A stretch of DNA of 64,000 nt, from assembly GCA_049523555.1 (NCBI GenBank), contig JBEKMU010000001.1, positions 226-64,225 of the forward strand, given 5' to 3'. The notes under the pieces are model-generated. The model saw nothing but the letters and a program-made list of their open reading frames with translations, made no database searches and had not been told where the DNA came from. Source of the DNA: Verrucomicrobiota bacterium (GTDB lineage: Bacteria > Verrucomicrobiota > Verrucomicrobiia > Limisphaerales > UBA11358). Position 1 is the first letter of the stretch. Each line of letters starts with the position of its first letter. Shown here piece after piece: positions 5,294 to 47,370 of this stretch. The translations under genes and the position numbers were made by a program.

Positions 5294-6658
5294 TCAAAAT
5301 CCTTCCAGATGATACGCGTGCAATTTGCGATGGAACGTCCGCCGGCTCATGCCGATTTTCTTCGCGGCCAATGTGCGGTTGCCGTCGGTTTCTTTCAAGG
5401 CGCGAATAATCAATTGTTTCTCCGCCTCCTTCACCGTCAGGTCATTGCGGTGCAATAATTGCGGCTCGCCACGACCGCCACCGCCACGCACGGAAGGCGG
5501 CAAATCCCGCGCGCCGATTTTTTCGCCGCGGTAAAGCACCACCGCGTGCTCGATGGCCGTGCGCAATTCGCGCACGTTGCCCGGCCACGAATAATTCATC
5601 AGCGCTTCGAGCGCGTCCGCCGTGAAATCGTTCACCGGCTTGCCGTTTTCGCGCGCAAATTCGCGCAAAAAACTTTGCGCCAGCAACGGAATGTCACCCG
5701 CGCGTTCGCGCAACGGCGGCAGATGAATTTCCACCACGCGCAGCCGGAAAAACAAATCCTCGCGGAACGTCCCGGCCTTGACGAGTTCCTCCAGATTTTT
5801 GTTGGTCGCCGCAATGAGCCGGGCGTCGGCGGTGAGCGTTTTGTTTGAACCGACGCGTTCAAAAGTGCGTTCGCCAAGAAAACGCAGCAGCTTCACCTGG
5901 ATCGTCGCGTCAATTTCCCCGATTTCGTCCAGAAACAGCGTCCCGCCCTGCGCCTGCTCAAATCTGCCAATCCGCCGCTCGTGCGCGCCGGTGAACGCCC
6001 CCTTTTCGTGGCCGAACAATTCGCTCTCCAGCAACGTCGGCGCCAAGGCCGCGCAGTGCACGGTCACAAACGGCTGTTTTGCGCGCGGACTCAACTGGTG
6101 AATCGCCTTCGCAACGAGTTCCTTGCCCGTGCCGCTTTCGCCCGTGAGCAGCACCGTGGCCCGCGTCGGGGCAACCTGCCGGACGATCTCAAAAATCTCC
6201 TGTATCGCTGGCGATTTGCCGACGATGTTTTCGAGGCCGAATTTGGAATCGAGTTGCTGGCGCAACGAAACGTTTTCCGATTCGAGATTTTGCTGGCGCA
6301 ACGCGCGCGCGATGCGCATTTCCAGCTCGTCAATTTGCAGCCGGCCTTTGGCGATGTAATCGTCCGCGCCGCGCTTCATCGCGTCCACGGCCAGTTCCTC
6401 CGAACCGTAAGCCGTCATCAAAATGCAAACCGGCGGTTTGGCCAGCGATTTGGCGCGGGCGATCAACTTCATGCCGTCCTCGCTGGGCAAACGAAAGTCC
6501 GTGAGCAGCACGTCGAAGTTCTCGCGTTCGAGCAAATCCATCGCCGCTTTTGCGTCCTCGGCCACGTAAACGTCGTAACGCTCCTCGAGCGCAGCGCGCA
6601 ACCCGTCACGCGTCGGTTTCTCGTCGTCCACAATCAACAAAGTCGGTTTTTCAGTCAC
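5294..6658 (-). CDS. Sigma-54-dependent response regulator (NtrC family)
   Basis: Receiver domain (LLIVDDE...DVLLTDFRLP), AAA+ sigma-54 interaction module (GESGTGKE, GAFTGA, ELFGHEKGAFTGA) and a C-terminal Fis-type HTH (NRTLAAKKIGMSRRTFHRKL). Confidence 0.9.
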   Translation of the reverse strand: MTEKPTLLIVDDEKPTRDGLRAALEERYDVYVAEDAKAAMDLLERENFDVLLTDFRLPSEDGMKLIARAKSLAKPPVCILMTAYGSEELAVDAMKRGADDYIAKGRLQIDELEMRIARALRQQNLESENVSLRQQLDSKFGLENIVGKSPAIQEIFEIVRQVAPTRATVLLTGESGTGKELVAKAIHQLSPRAKQPFVTVHCAALAPTLLESELFGHEKGAFTGAHERRIGRFEQAQGGTLFLDEIGEIDATIQVKLLRFLGERTFERVGSNKTLTADARLIAATNKNLEELVKAGTFREDLFFRLRVVEIHLPPLRERAGDIPLLAQSFLREFARENGKPVNDFTADALEALMNYSWPGNVRELRTAIEHAVVLYRGEKIGARDLPPSVRGGGGRGEPQLLHRNDLTVKEAEKQLIIRALKETDGNRTLAAKKIGMSRRTFHRKLHAYHLEGF

Positions 6659-6689
6659 AATCTTTCAAGGTCGCGTGAAGAACTTGCGC

Positions 6690-7955
6690 TCATTGGGGTT
6701 CTTCCGCGGTTTCCATTTCGGTTCTTTCTTTCAGCAAACGCGGCCCGCGTTCGTGCAACGGCAGCCAGATTCTAAACGTCGTGCCGCGACCGACGTGGCT
6801 TTCCAATTCGATTCTGCCGCCATGCGCGCGCACGATACGTTGCACAATCATCAAGCCGAGGCCGGTGCCCATTTTCTTGGTCGTGAAAAACGGCTCGAAG
6901 ATGCGGTTGATTTGTTCCGGCGGGATGCCGCCGCCCGTGTCAGTCACGCTCACCCAGACACCATCGGTGCCTTCGCCAGTTTGCAACGTGAGGGTGCCAC
7001 CCTTGGTCATCGCGTGCATGGCGTTTTTGACCAGGTTCACCAGTACCTGCTGCATCTGTGTCGCGTCAATCGGTGTCGCCGTCAACTGCCGCCCCAGCCT
7101 CGTCTTCACCGTCAGACCGCGATTGTCCAGTTCCGGTTGCAGCAGTGCCAGGGACTTTTCCACGACATCGTTGAGGGAAGTGATTTTCAATTGCGGCGGC
7201 GCGGGGCGAATCGCCTGCAAAAATTGCGTGATGATGTAATCCAGCCGCGCAATCTCGCCTTTGGCCACCCCCAGGTATTGTTCCAGCTTGCGGGAAACCT
7301 CCGCGACGTCGGCCTCGGCGGTGAGCGTTTGTGAACGCGTGCGCGAAACCAATCTCGAAGTGGCTCCGGTCGTTTTCAGTTTTTTCAACTCGCGTTCCAT
7401 GAGTTGCAAATGAATGTGCAGCGCGTTAAGCGGGTTGCCGATTTCGTGGGCGACGCTGGCGGCGAGCAGCGTGAGTGCCTGGACGCGCTCGCTTTCGATG
7501 GCTTCAAACGTTTTTTGCCGCGCCTCGGTCGCGTCGTGCAAAATCAGCGCGACGCCGGAACTGCCGGTAGCCTGACCGTCGAGTGGCGCTGCGTAGAGCC
7601 GGAGAAACCGCGGGCGCGGATAATGCACTTCAAATTCGTGGCGCACGACGCGCTCACCGCCCCCGTGGTCGGCCTTGGAAATTTTCTCCCAATCCAATTC
7701 CGGCAAAATATCCGCGATGTGCTGGCCCTCGACATCCGGTTGCAAGCCAATGAGCCGCGTGACCGCCTGATTGAAATAGATGATGCGCCCCTGCTCGTCC
7801 GCGACCAGCACGCCGTCTTCGATGGTGTTGAAAAGCGTTTCGAGAAAACTGCGTTCGCGCGCGAGCCGCTGAACGACGGTTTGAAGACCTTCGGTGTCCA
7901 GCCGACCAATGCGGCCAAGCACTTTGTCAAGAAAACTGGATTTGGGCGCTGGCAT
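6690..7955 (-). CDS. PAS-domain sensor histidine kinase (NtrB-like)
   Basis: PAS-like N-terminus, H-box LLAASVAHEIGNPLNAL, N box LVNLVKNAMHAM, and G boxes VTDTGGGI and GTGLGLMIVQRIV. Confidence 0.85.
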   Translation of the reverse strand: MPAPKSSFLDKVLGRIGRLDTEGLQTVVQRLARERSFLETLFNTIEDGVLVADEQGRIIYFNQAVTRLIGLQPDVEGQHIADILPELDWEKISKADHGGGERVVRHEFEVHYPRPRFLRLYAAPLDGQATGSSGVALILHDATEARQKTFEAIESERVQALTLLAASVAHEIGNPLNALHIHLQLMERELKKLKTTGATSRLVSRTRSQTLTAEADVAEVSRKLEQYLGVAKGEIARLDYIITQFLQAIRPAPPQLKITSLNDVVEKSLALLQPELDNRGLTVKTRLGRQLTATPIDATQMQQVLVNLVKNAMHAMTKGGTLTLQTGEGTDGVWVSVTDTGGGIPPEQINRIFEPFFTTKKMGTGLGLMIVQRIVRAHGGRIELESHVGRGTTFRIWLPLHERGPRLLKERTEMETAEEPQ

Positions 7956-24989: not shown

Positions 24990-25064
24990 TTTACGACATC
25001 TGATTTGCGATTTACGAGTCCGTCGAATTTTCGCCAGGCTCTTAAATTATTTACTGGCGCGTCA

Positions 25065-25092
25065 ATCGTGAATCGTAAATCGTAAATCGCCA
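25065..25092. repeat. Four tandem heptamers AATCGTG/AATCGTA/AATCGTA/AATCGCC abutting the ATG at 25093
   Basis: Read directly. The complementary units ATTTACG/ATTTGCG/ATTTACG lie at 24989-25016, just after the korB stop. Confidence 0.8.
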
Positions 25093-25596
25093 ATGCCGAT
25101 TTACGAATTCGCCTGTCCGAAGTGCCGCCGGATTTTCAGCTTCCTCTCGAAGCGCGTGAATCCCGGGCGCCCGCCGGTTTGCCCCAAATGCGGCAATAAA
25201 AAAATGTCCAAGCAGATCAGCCGCTTCGCCATGACCAAGGGGTTGAAGGAATCATCCGCCAAAACCGACGCCGGCGCCCCGGACGGTCCGCCCATGCCCG
25301 ATTTCGACGACCCGCGGGTCGCCCGCGCCATGGCCGAGATGGAACGCGACATGGAACATCTGGACGAAAACAATCCGCGGCACATGGCGCACCTGATGAA
25401 GAAAATGAAAGGTCTTATGCCGCCCGGTTCGACGCCGAAGGAACTGGATGTGGCCATCAAACGCTTGGAGGCCGGGGAAGACCCCGAAAAAATCGAAGCC
25501 GACATGGGCGACGTGCTTGGCGATTTCATGGGCGGCCCGGAAGGCGGCGCTGGTGGCGGCGGTTACACCAAGGACAGCGGACTCTATGACTATTAA
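25093..25596 (+). CDS. FmdB-family zinc-ribbon protein with an acidic/Gly-rich tail
   Basis: MPIYEFACPKCRRIF...PPVCPKCGN is the CxxC...CxxC zinc-ribbon signature of the FmdB/CxxC_CxxC_SSSS family. Confidence 0.7.
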   Translation: MPIYEFACPKCRRIFSFLSKRVNPGRPPVCPKCGNKKMSKQISRFAMTKGLKESSAKTDAGAPDGPPMPDFDDPRVARAMAEMERDMEHLDENNPRHMAHLMKKMKGLMPPGSTPKELDVAIKRLEAGEDPEKIEADMGDVLGDFMGGPEGGAGGGGYTKDSGLYDY

Positions 25597-26776: not shown

Positions 26777-26832
26777 GATTAACGCAAAGGCGCCAAGGCG
26801 CTAAGCCGCCAGGAGAAAACAATCCTCAATTG

Positions 26833-26864
26833 CTTTGCGCCTTTGCATCTTTGCGTCTTTGCGT
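26833..26864. repeat. Four tandem octamers CTTTGCGC/CTTTGCAT/CTTTGCGT/CTTTGCGT in the thrS leader, forming the right arm of an imperfect inverted repeat with 26779-26801
   Basis: Read directly. TTAACGCAAAG (26779-26789) is complementary to CTTTGCGTTAA (26857-26867). The array ends 12 nt before the thrS ATG. Confidence 0.75.
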
Positions 26865-29066: not shown

Positions 29067-31004
29067 CTACTTTTTCAAACGAAAGAAATTGGCCCCGCCG
29101 GAAATCGGGTTCGTAACCGTGAATTGAAGATTCACAACCACCGGGATATTCGTCAGCGTGATCCAGGAATTCGGGTTGGCGAGATTGGTGGTGGTTTGCA
29201 GACTGAAATTCTGCGCCGAGGGCGGCCATGAAAGGGTGATGTTGGTTCCCGAAAGGTTCACCTGCAAAGTGGGGGCCTGCGAAACAGGCGAGACAACCAG
29301 TGCCATACTATGATACCCGCCCGCGGCGATGGCCAAGACGATGCTTAAACCGCCCGGCACCGTGCTTTGGCCAGCAGAATTGTCTCCCCAAGCCACGACG
29401 GTCCCGTCGGACTTGAGCGCCAAACTGTGTGCCCATCCCCCACCGATGGCCAGGACGTTGCTTAAACCGCCCGGCACCGTGCTTTGGCCAGCAGAGTTGT
29501 CTCCCCAGGCCACGACGGTTCCATCGGACTTGAGCGCCAGACTGTGTGCCCATCCCGCGGCGATGGCCACGACGTTGTTCAGACCGCCCGGCACCAAGCA
29601 TTGGCCATAATAGTCGTCTCCCCAGGCTACGACGGTCTCGTCGGACTTGAGCGCCAGACTATGTGTCCATCCCGCGGCGATGGCCACGGCGTTGCTTAAA
29701 CCGATCGGCACCGTGCATTGGCCAGAATAGTTGTATCCCCAAGCTACGACGGTCCCGTCGGACTGGAGCGCCAGACTGTGATACCCTCCCGCGGCGATGG
29801 CCACGACTTTGCTCAAACCGCCCGGCACCGTGCATTGGCCAGAGGAGTTGTCTCCCCAAGCCACGACGGTCCCGTCGGACTGGAGCGCCAAACTGTGATA
29901 CCCTCCTGCGGCGATGGCCACGACGTTGCTTAAACCAATCGGCACCGTGCTTTGGCCATAATTGTTGTTTCCCCATCCCCAAGCCACGACGGTTCTATCG
30001 GACTTGAGCGCCAGACTGTGATACGCTCCCGCGGCCATGGCCACGACGTTGCTTAAACCAATCGGCACCGTGATTTGGCCATAATTGTTGTCTCCCCAAG
30101 CCATGACGGTTCCATCGGACTGGAGTGCCAAACTGTGATACGCTCCCGCGGCCATGGCCACGACGTTGCTCAGACCGCCCGGCACCGTGCATTGGCCAGC
30201 AGAGTTGTCTCCCCAGGCCACGATGGTCCCGTCGGACTGTAGCGCCAGACTGTGATAATCGCCCGCGGCGATGGTCTCGACGTTGCTCAAACCACTCGGC
30301 ACCGTGCTTTGACCAGCAGAGTTGTCTCCCCAGGCCGCGACGGTCCCGTCGGAATTGAGTGCCAAACTGTGATTCCCTCCCGCGGCGATGGCCACGACGT
30401 CGCTTAAACCACCCGGCACCGTGCTTTGGCCGGCAGAGTTGTTTCCCCAAGCTACGACGGTTCCATCGGACTTGAGCGCCAGACTGTGATAATCGCCCGC
30501 GGCGATGGTCTCGACGTTGCTCAAACCACCCGGCACCGTGCTTTGGCCAGCAGAGTTGTTTCCCCAAGCCACGACGGTTCCATCGGACTTGAGCGCCAGA
30601 CTGTGATACCCTCCCGCGGCGATGGCCACGACGTTGCTCAAACCGCCCGGCACCGTGCTTTGGCCATAATTGTTGTCTCCCCAAGCCACGACGGTTCCGT
30701 CGGACTTGAGCGCCAAACTGTGATACTCTCCCGCGGCGATGGCCACGACGTTGCTTAAACCGCCTGGCACCATACTTTGGCCTTCATAATTACGTCCCCA
30801 CGCCACGACGGTCCCGCCGGGCTTGAGCGCCAAACTGTGATACCCTCCCGCGGCGATGGCCTTAAAGCGGGTGCCGGGCTGAACCACGGGCATCGCTTGG
30901 TCTCCCCACGAAGCAACACTCCCGGTTTGCGTCGCCTTGGCTGGATGTGACACAAGGAATGCCGCTCCGCACGCCATTACAAGATTGAACATCTTCCGCT
31001 TCAT
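29067..31004 (-). CDS. Secreted RCC1/BLIP-II repeat protein with a C-terminal beta-sandwich-like tail
   Basis: ATG at 31004 (MKRKMFNLVMACGAAFLVSHPAKA) is preferred. About a dozen or more tandem repeats of the pattern ..VVAIAAGGYHSLALKSDGTVVAWGDNSAGQSTVPGGLSN.., typical of RCC1 blades. Confidence 0.8.
   Translation of the reverse strand: MKRKMFNLVMACGAAFLVSHPAKATQTGSVASWGDQAMPVVQPGTRFKAIAAGGYHSLALKPGGTVVAWGRNYEGQSMVPGGLSNVVAIAAGEYHSLALKSDGTVVAWGDNNYGQSTVPGGLSNVVAIAAGGYHSLALKSDGTVVAWGNNSAGQSTVPGGLSNVETIAAGDYHSLALKSDGTVVAWGNNSAGQSTVPGGLSDVVAIAAGGNHSLALNSDGTVAAWGDNSAGQSTVPSGLSNVETIAAGDYHSLALQSDGTIVAWGDNSAGQCTVPGGLSNVVAMAAGAYHSLALQSDGTVMAWGDNNYGQITVPIGLSNVVAMAAGAYHSLALKSDRTVVAWGWGNNNYGQSTVPIGLSNVVAIAAGGYHSLALQSDGTVVAWGDNSSGQCTVPGGLSKVVAIAAGGYHSLALQSDGTVVAWGYNYSGQCTVPIGLSNAVAIAAGWTHSLALKSDETVVAWGDDYYGQCLVPGGLNNVVAIAAGWAHSLALKSDGTVVAWGDNSAGQSTVPGGLSNVLAIGGGWAHSLALKSDGTVVAWGDNSAGQSTVPGGLSIVLAIAAGGYHSMALVVSPVSQAPTLQVNLSGTNITLSWPPSAQNFSLQTTTNLANPNSWITLTNIPVVVNLQFTVTNPISGGANFFRLKK
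29290..30880. repeat. Tandem array of highly similar repeat units of about 150 nt, encoding the RCC1 blades
   Basis: The same nucleotide strings (e.g. ccgcccggcaccgtgctttggccagcaga, gtcccgtcggacttgagcgccaaactgtg) recur with regular spacing along the gene. Confidence 0.8.
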
Positions 31005-31342
31005 GGTCTTCGGCTTCCCGGCTAATTTACGCGTCCCGGGCTGAAGTGATCCGATTCTATCAAAAGCCAGCCGGTCGTGCAAGGGATGTTTGCTTTATTC
31101 CAAGGTGCAGAGGCGGCCTTCGTTTCCGGAGGCAGCTTGGGGGTATTCAAATTTTCGTTTTACGTCGGTAGCGGCGTTGGTGTTGGTGCTTTCGCTTTGG
31201 CTTTTGCGCCGCCGGAGTCTAAGACAGTACGGAAATTGTTTGGCAGATGCGGCAAGTTGAAGTTTCCGTATGGCGGGTTGATTGGCAGGCTTGCCAGCGA
31301 TTGAGCCTGTTGGGCCGGATTGGACGGGATTGTTTTCATTCA

Positions 31343-40903: not shown

Positions 40904-43900
40904 TTATTCCCCGCTGCCGTTGTATCCGTTTTTGCGTTCCCAGCGGCGCGGTTGCCGTTCGGGCGGCGAGGTGTCCACTTTCGCGTAGTAAGTTTCCTCG
41001 CCAAACGATTTGTTGGCTGCCTGCTCCAACTCGATGGACGGTGTGACGCTGAATCGTTCGTTTGTGTCCATGAAAATGACCCCGCCGCCGGGACGCAGAA
41101 AGCTCAGCAGCAACGGGCATTTGCCGGGGTGCGCTGCGACCAGTTCGCGCACGGATTCGAGTTGTTCGGGCTTCAAATGCGCGGTGTGCAGGCGCAAATG
41201 CACCTGTTTGGTAAAACGTTTCGGCGCGTCCTCCAGCGGCAAAATTTCCTGTGGAAAAATTTTCGGCTTTTCGTCGCCGGTGTTTACTTCGCCGATGACA
41301 AGGATGGCGCGGTTCGGCTTGAGCAACTCGCGGTATTTCTCGTAATTCTCGTTCATGCAGAGTACCTGCACGGAGCCTTCCAAATCTTCGAGCATGACCA
41401 TCGAATATGGCTTGCCGCTCTTTTTCGACACGCCGTTTTGCACCGCGGCAATCAATCCGCCGATGCGCGTGAGGCTGCGATTTGGCAATTCCGCGAGCTT
41501 GGCAGTGTTGGTCAGTGCATATTTTTCGAGAATCGGCGCGAACGGCGTCAGCGGATGGCCGGTGACGTAAAAACCAAGCAATTCCTTTTCATGCGCGAGC
41601 AGTTCGTGCTGCGGCCATTCGGGCAGGTTGCTGATGGATTCCGGCATTGGCGGGGCCTTTTCCTCCAACACACCGAACAGCGAACTTTGTCCCTTCTGCC
41701 TGTCGGAAAGGATGCTTGCCGCGCGGGCCAGTGTGCGTTCGATCTGCGCGAACAACGTGGCGCGCGTCTGTCCGAAACCATCGCACGCGCCGGATTTGAT
41801 GAGCGCTTCGAGAATTTTCCGGTTCACCGTGCGGCCGTCCACGCGCTCGCATAAATCCGAGAGCGAAGAAAACTTTCCATGTTCTTTTCGCGCCTTTAGG
41901 ATGGTTTCCACCGCGACTTCGCCGACGCCTTTGATGGCGGCCAGGCCGAAACGGATGCCGCCTGTAGGACAGGCATCCTGCCGGTTTCTAATTTCTTTGT
42001 TTTCAGATGGAGACAGGCTGGAAGCCTGTCCTACGTTCTTGCGTTCCGCCGGCGCAAAATAAACCTGGCTTTCGTTCACATCCGGCGCCAGGACTTCGAT
42101 GCCGAACTCGCGCGCCTCGTTGATGTATTGACTCAACTTGACGGTGTCCGCCATGTCGTTGGTCATCATCGCGCAGAAAAATTCGACCGGATAGTTCGCC
42201 TTCAGATAGGCGGTTTGATACGCGACGATGGCGTAGGCGGCGGCGTGCGATTTGTTGAAGCCGTAACCCGCAAATTTTTCCAGCAAATCGAAAATCTCGT
42301 TCGCCTTTTTTTCGGGAATCTGGTTTTTCTCCTTGCAACCCTTGACGAAAACAGCACGTTGCTTGGCCATTTCCTCCCGCTTTTTCTTGCCCATGGCGCG
42401 CCGGAGCAAATCCGCGCCGCCGAGCGTGTAACCCGCCAGCACCTGCGCGGCCTGCATCACCTGCTCCTGGTAAATCAGAATACCGTAAGTCTCGCGGGCA
42501 ATCGGTTCGAGCAGCGGATGCTCATATTCAATTTTTACCTCGCCGTGGCGGCGGCGGATGAATTCAGGAATCAGCTCCATCGGACCGGGCCGGTAAAGCG
42601 CCACCAGCGCGGTAATGTGTTCGATGGAACTGATTTGGAATTTCCGGCACAAATCGCGCATCCCGCCGGATTCCAACTGGAACACGCCGAGCGTTTCCGC
42701 GCGATTAAGCAGGTCGTAGGTTTTTTGATCGTCGAGCGGCAAATGATCAATCGGCACTTCGATGTCGTGCGTGCGTCTGACCATTTCGCACGTGTTGCGG
42801 ATGACCGTGAGCGTTTTCAGGCCGAGAAAATCCATTTTCAACAGGCCGAGGTCGCCGACGGGGTTCATGGCGTATTGCGTGACGAGCGTGCCGCTTTCGT
42901 CCTGCTTGAGCGGGAGCAGATTCACGAGCGGCTGGTCGCCGATGACGACGCCCGCGGCATGCACGCTCGCGTTGCGCGCGAGGTCTTCGAGTACGAGCGC
43001 CGTGTCAATGAGTTCATGCGTGACGTCCTCGCTCCCGTAGGCTTCCTTGAGTTCCGGCGATTGTTTGAGCGCCTTTTCCAGCGTCATCTTCAAATCGAAC
43101 GGAATCATCTTGGCCAGCCGGTCGCATTCGCCGTAGCTCAAGCCCATCACGCGGCCCACGTCTCGCACCACGCTTTTCGCGCCCATCGTGCCGAAGGTAA
43201 TGATTTGGGCGACGGAATCGCGCCCGTATTTCTCGCGGACATATTCGATGACGTCCGCGCGGCGGTCGTCGGCAAAATCAATGTCAATGTCCGGCGGGCT
43301 GACGCGTTCGGGATTGAGGAACCGTTCGAACAGCAGGCCGTAGCGAATCGGGTCCACGTTTGAAATCTCCAGCAGGTAAGTGACAATCGAACCGGCCGCC
43401 GAACCACGCGCCACACAGGCGATCCCACGCTCGTGCCCGTAACGGATGAAATCGCCGACGATGAGGAAATAGGAAATGAACCCGGTCTTTTCGATGACCG
43501 TGAGTTCCAGTTTCAAACGATCAATGACCGTCTTGATGGCAGTAGCAACGGCAGGATCGTTCAATGTAGGACCGGCATCTTGCCTGTCTCCGTTTTTTTC
43601 TTTTGAAGTTTGAGACAGGCTGGAAGCCTGTCCGACGTTGTAAGTGGGCAAGCGCTTCGGGTCGTCAATGCCTTCGACGATGAATTCCTTCCCCTCGGCC
43701 TTGGCGTGAATCGTGTAGCGGCGGAACAACCCTTCAGCCAGCCATTGCCGCAGGTAACCTTCGCGCGTGAAATGTTCCGGCGGATGGAACACCGGATAAT
43801 GCAATTTGCCGAACTCGATTTCCAAATTGCATTTGTCGGCGATTTCCAGCGTGTTCTTCACCGCTTCGGGTGTCTCGGCGAAGCGCGCCTTCATTTCCTC

Positions 43901-44656
43901 CGCCGGGCGCAGGTAAAACTGCTCCGGTTCGTAACGCAGCCGTTTCGTGTCGGCGAGCTGCGTCTGCGTGCCGATGCAAATCAGGCAATCGTGCGCGTGC
44001 GAATGGCTTTTCTCGATGTAATGAACGTCGTTCGTCGCCACGAGCTTGAGGCCAAATTCCTTCGCCCACTGGATTAAATGGCGGTTCACCTTGGCCTGTT
44101 CCGCGATGCCGTGGTTTTGCAGTTCGAGGTAAAAATTGTCCGCGCCAAGCGTTTGCCTGAACCAGTCCACCGTGTCGCGCGCCTTTTGAATTTGGTCCTT
44201 CAAAATCCATTCCGGAATCTCGCTGGCAAGGCAGCCGGACATTGCAATCAAACCCTCCTTGTGTGCGGCGAGAAGCTCCTTGTCTATGCGCGGCTTGTAA
44301 TAATAGCCGGTGAGATGCGCCTCGGTGGTGAGCTGGATGAGATTTTTGTAGCCGGTCGCGTCCCGGGCCAGCAGGCCGAGATGGTGATAAACATCACGTC
44401 CGCCGCTGCTGGTTTTCTTCTCCAGCCGGCTGCCCGGCGCGACATAAACCTCGCAGCCGATGATGGGTTTGATGCCTTTTTCGCGCGCGGCCTGGTAAAA
44501 ATCAATCGCGCCGTAGAGCACGCCGTGGTCGGTGATGGCGAGCGCGGGGAATTTCAATTCATGGGCCTTGTCCACCAGCCGGTCCAGCCGGCAGGCGCCA
44601 TCGAGCAACGAATACTCGGTGTGCAAATGAAGATGAACAAAGTCCGCGTGCGACAT
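40904..44656 (-). CDS. dnaE: DNA polymerase III alpha subunit
   Basis: PHP domain start [21 protein letters not shown], palm/fingers motifs ([31 protein letters not shown]), HhH region [12 protein letters not shown] and a C-terminal OB domain. 1250 aa including two in-frame 25-aa inserts. Confidence 0.95.
41963..42037 (-). repeat. 75-nt palindromic element inserted in frame in dnaE (copy A)
   Basis: Outer arms gtaggacaggc...gcctgtcctac, inner palindrome gacaggctggaagcctgtc. Encodes [25 protein letters not shown] immediately before [13 protein letters not shown]. Confidence 0.8.
43565..43639 (-). repeat. 75-nt palindromic element inserted in frame in dnaE (copy B)
   Basis: The termini are the same as in copy A (tgtaggaccggcatc...gagacaggctggaagcctgtccgacgtt), with a variable centre. 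Encodes [24 protein letters not shown]. Confidence 0.8.
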
Positions 44657-44702
44657 GAGGACAGTTTAACTTCCAATCACGAAGACACCAAGACGCAAAG
44701 CT
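44624..44702. repeat. dnaE start/leader segment, proximal copy of a direct repeat of about 78 nt
   Basis: tgaagatgaacaaagtccgcgtgcgacatgaggacagtttaacttccaatcacgaagacaccaagacgcaaagct is repeated at 47293-47370. Confidence 0.8.
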
Positions 44703-44918
44703 TTGAAAAATTAAACAGCTCGGATTTGCCGGCATTGGGGATGGCCGACGGTGCGATACGTCTTGACCGGCTGACCGTTGGCGACCTTTTGCCACGGCGG
44801 AAATTAAAATAAGATTCTATTAAAATTAAAATAAGGTTGACACTGCGCGACACAGCCGTCACGCTCAAAAACGTCGCAATTGGTAAAAAACAAAAAGCCG
44901 TTCTACCGAACTCGTAAA

Positions 44919-47225
44919 ATGTTGAACAGGAAATTTGCTATAAGGACGTTCATGGTATTTGGATTGTTGGCCGGTGTGACTGGTGTCGCTCAAAACGGCG
45001 ACACATCGTTGCATCCCCCTTTACAAAACAAACAGGCCGTGGTGCCGCCGACAATCATACCCCTCAATCTTCCGACCTTAAAAATTGCACCTGTTCACGA
45101 TTTGGACTCGTTGCAAGCTGCTCAACGTCAGACACACAACCAAGTCTTGGCGGCGCTCCAAGACCTCATCAGCCGTAACGGACCAAAAATTCCACAGGTT
45201 GCCTCTCCCCAACCCGTGTATGGACTCCGCCCCGGGCTTGGACTATTCGATCAGACAAATTTAGCTGGCAACGCAATAATTACACAGTTGGCGCCTATTG
45301 CCTCAATCTTCGCTAATGGCGACCAACTCGGCAATCGCCATGGCGGTAACAATGTTGATGACTGGAAGATCTTCAACGCAGGCTTTTTCTCCGATCCCCC
45401 GGCTTTTTGGCAAAATGATTCTGGCGCGCCATTAACTGGAATATTTAATTCCACTTTAGCGATGACCTCACCGGACCCCGTTGCAACGACAACGCCAAAC
45501 GGTTCAGGATTGGTTGGAGTTACCGTGCAGGGTGCCTTGGTTGTCGGTGGGAATGTCGTCAGTTTGGTGATTCCCTGTTACTATCTGCCAGGCTGGGGCG
45601 CGTTCATCTTCAACCATGCTCACTTCGAAGTTCAAGTCGAGCAGCTAAACTCTTCAGGCCAGTGGTCTCAAATGACGCGGGCCGCTTTGGATATGTACGC
45701 CAATGGTGCGACTGCGACCGGCTACACGCCGCCGACGGGCGTACCGGATACGGTAATTAACGTTGCTGGAAACACCCCGTACTCAATGCCATGGATTGTG
45801 CCCATTGCGCTCCCGGATGTGGCAAATACCTTGAGGGTGGACCTTTATGCTGAACTCTACGATACGGACGAAAGTGTTACTTCCCCGGGTTGGTCATTTC
45901 CGAACGGGTCGGTCTACGCATCTCAAGTCGGTCAGCAACCGCTTGATCACCAGAATGTTGGAACAATCATCAGTGATGCGACAGCAGGGCATAATTGGGA
46001 TACATCTCCCGCGTTCCAAGTGATAATCGCACCCACCTATTTTGGACAAATGCATGCCCTCCCGTACACCATCATTTACACACCACCAGGAAACAACAGC
46101 GATGTGCAATTTAAAACCACCTCGACCTATGGTACTATGATGGGTTTCCAAGTTCAAAACCAGACACAGGTGCAGGTCGCCAATGTTGTTGGGCAGTCAT
46201 TTAAGATTGGTGCAAACTACTCATTTAATCTGGCAGGCGTCGATTTGGGGCCCAACAGTCAGGCTGGGATCAATGCAGCTGCCACGTTCGGGAACCAAAT
46301 TACCACGACATCCACGGTGCAAACCCAGACGAATAACACAGAAACTCTTACAATAAACTCAAGCTTGGCAACGACCTTTGAAGAAAACGTCGCCAAAGGT
46401 AATCCGCCGCCACCAGCCGGCGATCAGGTGCAACGGTGGGAAGAACCCTTCTGGGGAGACATGATCGACGTAATTATTAACCCGGTGTTCGCGATATGGA
46501 GTTATCCCTCTCTTGGTGAAGGAGAGCCGGCCTTTTCGGCGGCACAGGTCATTGCGTACGGTCAAGGATCCCAAAGCGACTTGCTCCTCCCGGTAAACTC
46601 GCTGTACTACGCAGTACTAGTCGGAACCAATTACACTGTTCCTTCGACAACCAATACTTTCACGCCACAGGAATGCGCTGCTCTGCTCAACTTGGATCCA
46701 TTTTATTCCGGCGGAGCTTGGCAGGGAGCGTCGCTTGATCCAGCACGCTTTGTGCTCATTAGTGCTCCAGGGAATTCCCTGCCGAACGTTTCCAGGAAAT
46801 ATGACTCGACGGAAACAACGAGTTATCAGTCCCAACTCCAAGTCACGGGACAATATGGCAATACAACTGCAAATCAATCAGGCCAAAATTCTGCCACCTT
46901 TGGCGGCAATATTGGTCCAATCAGCGGTAGCGCGACGTTGAACCAACAACAAACTGCGACAACCAACATTCAAGTACAATATCAGTCGCAAGTTCAAACT
47001 AACATTGGGAATAGTGTGGAGTCGGTGGTGACGATTCAGGATTCGGCTTCATTAGGATCGATGAAAGTTTACCAGGATCTGGTTTTCGGAGGTCTTGCAG
47101 TTCAGGATCCTAACGAGCCAAACACTGGGCCATTGATTCAGATAGTGGTAGAGCCGTTTCAAGGCCCCTTAGTCCACAGACCTTACGTCAATCAGTATCT
47201 ACAGCATTCGCCTGTGACTCACTGA
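44919..47225 (+). CDS. Hypothetical secreted protein (about 768 aa), rich in Thr/Gln/Asn/Ser/Gly
   Basis: ATG at 44919 gives a signal-like N-terminus MLNRKFAIRTFMVFGLLAGVTGVAQ. No recognised domain. AT-richer than the flanks. Lies between the two copies of the dnaE 5' segment. Confidence 0.55.
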   Translation: MLNRKFAIRTFMVFGLLAGVTGVAQNGDTSLHPPLQNKQAVVPPTIIPLNLPTLKIAPVHDLDSLQAAQRQTHNQVLAALQDLISRNGPKIPQVASPQPVYGLRPGLGLFDQTNLAGNAIITQLAPIASIFANGDQLGNRHGGNNVDDWKIFNAGFFSDPPAFWQNDSGAPLTGIFNSTLAMTSPDPVATTTPNGSGLVGVTVQGALVVGGNVVSLVIPCYYLPGWGAFIFNHAHFEVQVEQLNSSGQWSQMTRAALDMYANGATATGYTPPTGVPDTVINVAGNTPYSMPWIVPIALPDVANTLRVDLYAELYDTDESVTSPGWSFPNGSVYASQVGQQPLDHQNVGTIISDATAGHNWDTSPAFQVIIAPTYFGQMHALPYTIIYTPPGNNSDVQFKTTSTYGTMMGFQVQNQTQVQVANVVGQSFKIGANYSFNLAGVDLGPNSQAGINAAATFGNQITTTSTVQTQTNNTETLTINSSLATTFEENVAKGNPPPPAGDQVQRWEEPFWGDMIDVIINPVFAIWSYPSLGEGEPAFSAAQVIAYGQGSQSDLLLPVNSLYYAVLVGTNYTVPSTTNTFTPQECAALLNLDPFYSGGAWQGASLDPARFVLISAPGNSLPNVSRKYDSTETTSYQSQLQVTGQYGNTTANQSGQNSATFGGNIGPISGSATLNQQQTATTNIQVQYQSQVQTNIGNSVESVVTIQDSASLGSMKVYQDLVFGGLAVQDPNEPNTGPLIQIVVEPFQGPLVHRPYVNQYLQHSPVTH

Positions 47226-47292: not shown

Positions 47293-47370
47293 GTTGAAGA
47301 TGGACAAAGCCCGCGTGCGACATGAACGCAGTTTAGCTTCCAATTACGAAGACACCAAGACACAAAGCTC
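47293..47370. repeat. Distal copy of the dnaE start/leader segment (orphan dnaE 5' fragment)
   Basis: On the minus strand it reads ATG TCG CAC GCG GGC TTT GTC CAT CTT CAA CAG TAA (MSHAGFVHLQQ*), versus dna[13 protein letters not shown]. The upstream leader is also conserved: I counted 7 mismatches over the 64-nt stretch 47307-47370 aligned to 44638-44702. Confidence 0.8.

Follow-up and report, generated by a model that had tools for sequence, protein, structure and literature searches.

Two palindromic elements in the dnaE reading frame

The DNA described here is a 64,000-nt (64-kb) stretch of contig JBEKMU010000001.1 from a Verrucomicrobiota bacterium of the Limisphaerales, which we call the window. 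Its minus strand carries dnaE, the gene for the alpha subunit of DNA polymerase III (Pol III), and two palindromic elements lie within the reading frame of this gene. The 1250-aa open reading frame (ORF) shows the Pol III alpha set of Pfam domains (PHP, DNA_pol3_alpha, finger, HHH_6 and OB), is matched by the T. aquaticus Pol III alpha structure (2hpi, E=1e-286) in a PDB search, and has homologs named DNA polymerase III subunit alpha in metagenome-assembled genomes (MAGs) of Verrucomicrobiota/Limisphaerales. The original prediction described two 75-nt elements of the same orientation in the dnaE frame, and this description holds: stretches 41963-42037 and 43565-43639 are 75 nt each, 80% identical and in one orientation (repeat family D13). 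The element proper is in each case the 71 nt from GTAG to CTAC (41964-42034 and 43566-43636), the remaining 1+3 nt being flanks that the two copies share by coincidence. Both are dimers of repetitive extragenic palindromic (REP) units. We refer to them as copies A and B and to their places in the polymerase as site 2 and site 1, respectively; the host gene and the parts of the elements are as follows.

40904-44656, minus strand: dnaE, DNA polymerase III alpha subunit, host of both elements; 1250 aa, identified from the ORF list, its translation, Pfam and the PDB
41964-42034, minus strand: site-2 REP dimer, copy A (71 nt), which together with 41963 codes for V875-T898, immediately ahead of the helix-hairpin-helix segment
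41968-41986: REP unit A1, partly decayed; arm GACAGGC, loop ATCCT, arm GCCGGTT, with a GTAG tag before it at 41964-41967
41987-42011, minus strand: spacer of copy A, A-rich on the coding strand; encodes a hydrophilic stretch
42012-42030: REP unit A2, an exact match; arm GACAGGC, loop TGGAA, arm GCCTGTC (7-bp stem, 5-nt loop), followed by a CTAC tag
43566-43636, minus strand: site-1 REP dimer, copy B (71 nt), which together with 43565 codes for V341-T364 within the variable PHP-palm connector
43570-43588: REP unit B1; arm GACCGGC, loop ATCTT, arm GCCTGTC, one stem mismatch, with GTAG before it at 43566-43569
43614-43632: REP unit B2; arm GACAGGC, loop TGGAA, arm GCCTGTC, with a degenerate outer tag that reads CGAC on the plus strand and GTCG in the coding orientation

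In each half of an element a stem of 7 bp (GACAGGC/GCCTGTC) closes a loop of 5 nt, forming a small hairpin of the GTAGGACAGGC type, and the halves are inverted, with their tags outward, around a spacer of 21-27 nt that is A-rich on the coding strand. Two of the four units in the window are exact (A2 and B2) and two are partly decayed. GTAG/CTAC stands at three of the four outer ends, the fourth being the degenerate GTCG of copy B, and copies in relatives are tagged either GTAG or GTGG. The loops vary among TTCCA/TGGAA, AGGAT/ATCCT, AAGAT/ATCTT and GTCGC/GCGAC; both window copies are heterodimers, and the ATCCT/AGGAT variant recurs in many other copies. In this anatomy the window elements are GTAG-tagged REP dimers that resemble REPINs (REP doublets forming hairpins), the type associated with REP-associated tyrosine transposases (RAYTs).

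The 19-nt core of the elements, GACAGGCTGGAAGCCTGTC, has exactly two matches on the plus strand of the window, where shuffles lead us to expect 0.01, and matches to the other arm, GTAGGACAGGCATCCTGCC, are confined to the same two sites (0.00 expected from shuffles). That the long arms can pair, as had been proposed, is borne out. The inverted arms of 25-29 nt are 79-84% complementary across an intervening 21 nt, and the DNA is predicted to fold into long imperfect hairpins with dG of -19.6 and -18.7 kcal/mol (z about -6), which none of 200 shuffles equalled. The two elements are the two strongest local inverted repeats of the entire window (I1 and I2). We considered compensatory evolution of the long hairpin and rejected it, because the loops of its arms occur in mixed combinations (TTCCA, GTCGC, AGGAT, AAGAT, GCGAC, TGGAA) that fit a mixture of REP variants in homo- and heterodimers rather than selection for pairing.

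The ORF runs continuously, in frame, across both inserts, which add hydrophilic peptides of 24 residues (aa 341-364) and 25 residues (aa 875-899) to DnaE; the peptides had been quoted correctly at the outset, as had the position of the latter directly before the helix-hairpin-helix segment. Relative to the empty site 2 of orthologs, the net gain is 25 codons. Among the six frames compared, the one in use (GTA GGA CAG GC., read as VGQAS…ACPT from the strand with the A-rich spacer) is stop-free in both copies with a grand average of hydropathy (GRAVY) of -1.11 and -1.39, and the frames of the opposite strand are hydrophobic or contain stops.

Occupancy of the two sites across relatives

We aligned the closest 120 protein homologs of the window DnaE, all from Verrucomicrobiota/Limisphaerales MAGs and 86-100% identical to it, and 80 further orthologous loci from metagenomes, which are 76-90% identical. 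An empty site 2, reading 'APAR(E/D)GKAIRFGL' (CCG GCG CGC GAR GGC AAG GCC ATC), is present in 40 of 81 loci and about 25 of 118 proteins; 23 of the 81 loci have a site 1 that is either short or empty. The window elements are insertions, because so many close orthologs (76-91% identical) have empty sites; the original prediction had named conservation of these segments in relatives as the outcome that would count against it, and the alignment instead shows that they are not conserved DnaE sequence. The same inserts are present in independently assembled orthologs (P0002, P0003, P0005 and others), and the site-2 element of the window is common to 11 of 118 close homologs (88-100% identity), with small changes and a largely intact peptide.

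In the solved structures, site 2 aligns to a 5-residue turn in E. coli alpha (824-828) and a 6-residue turn in Taq alpha (881-886), directly before the helix-hairpin-helix, and site 1 aligns to the variable PHP-palm connector, between E. coli alpha residues 304 and 323, where Taq alpha has a long native insert. Length variation of at least 6 aa within the internal regions of the 81 orthologs is restricted to these two sites.

What occupies the sites differs widely from one ortholog to another. At least nine clearly different hairpin families are found at site 2 among the L121-L200 orthologs, many of them tagged GTAG/GTGG…CTAC/CCAC with dG down to -81 kcal/mol and z down to -10, and at least nine unrelated hairpin families share sites 1 and 2 across these lineages. 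Their peptide signatures at the two sites include TGFQPV…GQRPVPQ, RSAGVSPA…, AAGILPA…RQDAGGT, AAVPAA…DSRAP, VARASRP…GTPVPL, SVGDDVRSL…PPHVGSY and PLTPALSP…GEGQGEGE. Older site-2 inserts have lost their hairpin through decay (z about 0). When the masked dnaE alignment is turned into a neighbour-joining tree, Fitch parsimony requires at least 13 switches between empty and filled at site 2 and 31 changes of family, counts to be read with the caution that the tree is approximate and that recombination within dnaE could mimic some of these events. The family of the window elements (family A) is scattered over the same tree and in one locus (L102) sits at site 1.

In orthologs with an empty site 2 (e.g. 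L198, L124), a perfect 10-nt palindrome, GCGCCGGCGC, stands immediately before the insertion point, and it may be relevant to hairpin-dependent targeting. The 'AAC…A' flank common to both window copies was tried as a target motif and discarded, since it is not general in orthologs.

The REP family and the RAYTs of related loci

The family extends well beyond dnaE. A scan of species-representative genomes with a 20-nt core, GACAGGCTGGAAGCCTGTCC, matched at least 120 stretches in Planctomycetota, Verrucomicrobiota, 'Deltaproteobacteria', Acidobacteriota and others, and among the matches listed the core is mostly part of an inverted dimer with GTAG/CTAC or GTGG/CCAC tags. The exact architecture of the window elements occurs in multiple copies in several Verrucomicrobiota MAGs (L027, L035, L037, L057, L070, L079 (twice), L092 and L098). 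Copies lie both within and between genes. Of 147 cores (145 from the listed loci plus the two of the window), 42 are embedded in open frames that extend 80 codons or more to either side, and most in-frame copies elsewhere read as VGQASSLS…RQDACPT, as in the window. Nine of ten host ORFs scanned carry Pfam domains and are bona fide genes. The core lies inside the matched domain in five hosts (ValRS, Glu/Gln-RS, KsgA, a class-III aminotransferase and SucC) and outside the best reported domain match in four multi-domain Pfam-matched genes (UvrA, FolC twice, and PurL). In a Pirellulales MAG (L049, ~5996-7010) at least seven tandem units of ~168 nt each end in the REP core plus CTAC.

The association of this family with a RAYT is clear in related loci. 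One of them, L109, has family-A REPs on both sides of a RAYT whose identity to the RAYT embedded in the DnaE of relatives is 51%. In L203/P0249 a stem variant with the same loop (GGCAGGC/GCCTGCC) flanks the RAYT, which itself contains one exact family-A unit, and REP peptides of the VGQASSL type stand on both sides of the RAYT in P0243 and P0246. Homologs of the DnaE-embedded RAYT are named 'REP element-mobilizing transposase RayT' by JGI.

Several relatives of the window carry the transposase gene inside dnaE itself. In two independent assemblies, L201 (6001-10452; P0023) and L202 (6001-10470; P0108), a unit of REP dimer, RAYT and REP dimer, about 260 codons long, is read through in frame at DnaE site 2; we call such units REPtrons. 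The embedded RAYT retains the NHVH, WQ and Y(L/I)xxNP signatures that are listed for TnpA(REP) classes (PMC6006769). Between the L201 and L202 lineages, the ratio of nonsynonymous to synonymous divergence (dN/dS) is 0.13 in the RAYT core (dS 0.73) and 0.12 in the rest of DnaE (dS 0.62), and the similarity of both dN/dS and dS indicates that the two have diverged together by vertical descent, under purifying selection. Searching with a chimeric query brought up seven further proteins (P0241-P0246 and P0248, 62-87% identical) with RAYT directly before HHH_6, that is, at site 2. At site 1, P0249 (L203 1015-2851) has REP, RAYT and REP in frame at the same codon as copy B of the window; its DnaE part is 82% identical to that of the window and collinear with it through '…RLPTY(N/V)VGQASSL'. 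Single dimers of the family that flanks the REPtrons (VARASRPF…GGTPVPL) stand at site 2 in P0025, P0027, P0111 and L156.

DnaE is one of several hosts. The same clade of RAYTs is fused in frame to many other housekeeping proteins (P0252-P0326; L109 320-4357), with partners that include D-Tyr-tRNA deacylase (~30 clusters), the C-terminal domains of DinG-like helicases, RecF, SerA, a GT9 glycosyltransferase and a UDPGP-like protein; in a Sua5/TsaC fusion the RAYT lies between the two domains. An earlier survey of these transposases discarded 'unexpectedly long proteins' as fusions or annotation errors (PMC6006769). Our literature search, which was not exhaustive, turned up nothing beyond PMC3733652 on dnaE as a REP hot spot or on RAYTs fused in frame, and both the hot-spot pattern at sites 1 and 2 and the in-frame RAYTs in DnaE and other housekeeping genes appear to be undescribed.

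The window contains further repeats. The dnaE 5′ untranslated region and first ~10 codons (44628-44702) are duplicated at 47295-47369 (89% identity, 2.67 kb upstream, same strand; MSHAGFVHLQQ*), and between the two copies the opposite strand carries an ORF of 781 aa (44880-47225) without a Pfam hit. The arrangement resembles an insertion into the dnaE 5′ end by which the start of the gene was restored. DnaE-like matches also lie far upstream of the dnaE ORF in the relatives L122, L128, L129, L155 and L160. Two REP-like hairpins of different sequence (e.g. ACGCAAAGGCGCCAAGGCGC…) occupy intergenic gaps at 25002-25109 and 26782-26856, and at 29268-30860 lie twelve tandem 117-nt repeats, which code for the RCC1 repeats in a protein of 671 aa from the minus strand (ORF 29067-31082).

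Origin of the inserts and relation to known elements

Several classes of element share features with the window inserts. Inteins are selfish in-frame elements of essential replication and repair genes, DnaE included, whose imprecise loss is lethal. The in-frame RAYT units of the window's relatives occupy the same kind of niche. The window inserts differ from inteins in having no splicing motifs or sign of removal, in being too short (24-25 aa, where an intein needs at least ~130 aa) and having to remain part of the finished protein, and in sitting in permissive loops rather than in conserved active-site motifs; they contain no Pfam domain and no Rfam match above threshold, and fall outside the intein and self-splicing class. 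MITEs (miniature transposable elements with inverted repeats) such as Correia/NEMIS, Nezha and ERIC derive from DDE insertion sequences and make target-site duplications. Like the window elements they are short, non-autonomous, hairpin-forming repeats in or beside genes, but the present elements end in REP-type GTAG tags and show no such duplication. Rickettsia palindromic elements (RPEs), the analogy drawn in the original prediction, are likewise palindromic repeats that lie in frame in housekeeping genes. Ogata and colleagues reportedly found in 2000 and 2002 that RPEs had inserted in frame into many Rickettsia housekeeping genes without inactivating them. To our knowledge, the RPE families are specific to Rickettsia and have no dedicated transposase. 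RPE-4 and RPE-6 carry CGTC tags (PMC3733652). In-frame palindromic insertion, the core of the RPE analogy, stands, but membership in a Rickettsia RPE family does not, the window elements being GTAG-tagged, RAYT-associated and from Verrucomicrobiota; the distinction is drawn by tag and lineage, without alignment to an RPE consensus.

The closest match is to the REPs themselves. The GTAG- and CGTC-tagged REP superfamilies have been defined, and GTAG REPs are known from the PVC (Planctomycetes, Verrucomicrobia, Chlamydiae) superphylum (Di Nocera, De Gregorio and Rocco 2013, PMC3733652). GTAG REPs and REPINs with their RAYTs (PMC3733652; Bertels & Rainey 2011, PMC3116915) have, like the window units, a terminal GTAG and a short-loop stem (6-9 bp in known cases), and known dimers are inverted around a 20-100-nt spacer and form a larger hairpin, as do ours. 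As to context, known GTAG REPs flank RAYT genes, which for the window's family is seen in related loci; they occur in PVC bacteria, form intragenic dimers of 20-30 aa, sometimes two per ORF, and are biased towards genes of replication and repair. Intragenic GTAG dimers of this size, in some ORFs two of them, were reported from the verrucomicrobium Opitutus terrae, and more than half of the inserts reported are dimers of 20-30 aa (PMC3733652). Hosts over-represented among REP-bearing genes are those of replication and repair, among them uvrA, recBCD, polA and dnaE2 (Oter_4053, residues 934-971), and R. conorii dnaE also contains a REP (RC1211, residues 853-861) (PMC3733652), possibly in the same loop as site 2. 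The original prediction's belief that such insertion was undescribed for this lineage or for dnaE is thus overturned by the Verrucomicrobia intragenic dimers, the dnaE2 insert and the R. conorii dnaE REP of that study. The Opitutus REPs (GTAG-17 to GTAG-20) come from the same phylum and form dimers in polymerase, helicase and UvrA genes, and their peptide signatures GTGVPPV and HGRHARAT are related to 'GGTPVPL' and 'ARASRP', which relatives of the window have at DnaE site 2; they differ from the window elements in belonging to other REP families and in lying in another polymerase paralog (dnaE2) at another insertion position. The family with stem GACAGGC is absent from the intragenic REP peptides in the supplement of PMC3733652, and the host here is the replicative dnaE of a Limisphaerales-type verrucomicrobium, with no RAYT or further copies in the 64 kb. 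To a phenomenon already described, phylum and dnaE included, the window contributes a REP sequence family and a host that are both new.

Very probably, REP dimers mobilised by a RAYT landed in two permissive loops of DnaE, where they have been kept in frame and translated, nearly neutral and slowly decaying. Each would be a non-autonomous GTAG dimer mobilised in trans by a RAYT (HUH/Y1) transposase acting on hairpins of single-stranded DNA, and the two would have inserted at the only two positions where the polymerase tolerates extra length, in the PHP-palm connector (aa 341) and in the short turn before the helix-hairpin-helix (aa 875). Selection would then act as a filter through which only in-frame, stop-free insertions encoding hydrophilic loops survive, because dnaE is presumed to be essential. 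The inserts would be translated as surface loops of 24-25 residues, most likely neutral or nearly so, and would decay slowly through point mutation while persisting because their imprecise loss would be lethal. As surface-exposed loops, judged by where the two sites align in solved structures, they would be compatible with the fold. In favour of this account are the anatomy of the elements, the empty sites of orthologs, the recurrence of the core in other genomes, the RAYTs beside the family in related loci, the properties of the frame in use, the confinement of length variation to the two sites and the precedent of PMC3733652; the mode of transposition, the translation of the peptides, their exposure and their neutrality are inferred.

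Some of our results weigh against this account. The two window copies are the only members of the family in 64 kb, both are inside dnaE, and tblastn found no RAYT homolog in the window. No direct repeat flanks either window copy or the orthologous copies, and no target motif emerges from the flanks of filled sites compared with the empty site; neither a duplication nor a motif can be derived because the flanks have diverged and do not align unambiguously to the empty site. An AlphaFold2 model of DnaE aa 1-1000, built from a 41-sequence alignment (all at least 86% identical), was unusable (mean pLDDT, the predicted local distance difference score, 43.7; predicted template modelling score, pTM, 0.31), and the argument for surface exposure therefore draws on alignment to solved structures. 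Finally, the density of family-A units within dnaE (20 per 295 kb) is about 7-fold that of the flanking DNA (5 per 482 kb), in loci that are phylogenetically non-independent. Random insertion followed by a filter does not by itself predict this density, which leaves room for effects of targeting or retention.

The alternatives differ in how the elements arrived and why they stayed. One is that the window dimers are remnants of REPtrons from which recombination between the flanking REPs deleted the transposase. In-frame REPtrons at the same codons in relatives (site 2 in L201/P0023, L202/P0108, P0241-P0246 and P0248; site 1 in P0249/L203) speak for such an origin, as do the single dimers of the REPtron-flank family at site 2 in P0025, P0027, P0111 and L156 and the resemblance between the arms of the window heterodimers (left-hand loop TTCCA, right-hand loop AGGAT/AAGAT) and the two outer REPs that flank the L109 RAYT. 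We nonetheless consider it doubtful that the window dimers arose in this way: we found no intermediate for the window's own lineage, the flanks of the L203 site-1 REPtron belong to a sibling subfamily (stem GGCAGGC, not GACAGGC), and independent insertion is sufficient because dimers of the family also sit at many places with no RAYT nearby. Retention for a function, either as an mRNA hairpin that tunes dnaE translation or stability or as a loop that alters contacts with DNA or the clamp, would fit the occurrence of the site-2 element at the same codon, with its peptide largely intact, in 11 of 118 close homologs (88-100% identity), the enrichment of REP units in dnaE over its flanks, and the known influence of REPs on how stable an mRNA is and how it is translated (cited as background in PMC3733652 and PMC6006769). 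It is hard to reconcile with the 40 of 81 orthologs that lack any site-2 insert, with others that hold unrelated sequences of different length and composition, and with older inserts that remain although their hairpin is gone (z about 0). Nor does a terminator-like tail follow the hairpins; a scan of dnaE for terminators and promoters returned none at the elements, with counts not above those of shuffles, and Rfam gave only sub-threshold miRNA hairpin matches (26 bits against gathering scores of ~100), which we treat as chance. We regard a retained function as improbable.

That the segments are instead native hypervariable linker, palindromic by chance, or an artefact of assembly has in its favour that Pol III alpha in general has variable linkers at both sites, with the long native Taq insert at site 1. 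This idea has next to no chance of being right and we take it as refuted by the repetition of the core elsewhere and by the independently assembled orthologs: the 19-20-nt core is identical in both copies and at 120 or more unrelated loci, with 0.01 expected by chance, GTAG/CTAC tags are present, and the same inserts recur in separate assemblies. Chance and assembly artefact are excluded as explanations of the two palindromic stretches in dnaE.

Insertion of RAYT-mobilised dimers into permissive loops leaves room for a broader and more tentative idea, which the in-frame REPtrons suggest and which we think is on balance unlikely. The DnaE loops could be a habitual residence of a translationally embedded REP/RAYT system, in which the polymerase carries an HUH transposase to the single-stranded DNA of the replication fork, and the window dimers would be its derivatives or passengers. 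If true, this would be an intein-like niche without splicing. In practical terms, inserts of this kind inflate and fragment the annotations of essential genes in PVC genomes and mark permissive sites for DnaE engineering. For the biology of these bacteria, the window inserts are an entry point to the repeated colonisation of the same two polymerase codons across this order of Verrucomicrobiota, and they touch on the action of RAYTs, the spread of REPINs and the preference of intragenic REPs for genes of replication and repair. With a natural chimera of polymerase and transposase, the link proposed between the replication fork and the mobilisation of REPs could be tested directly.

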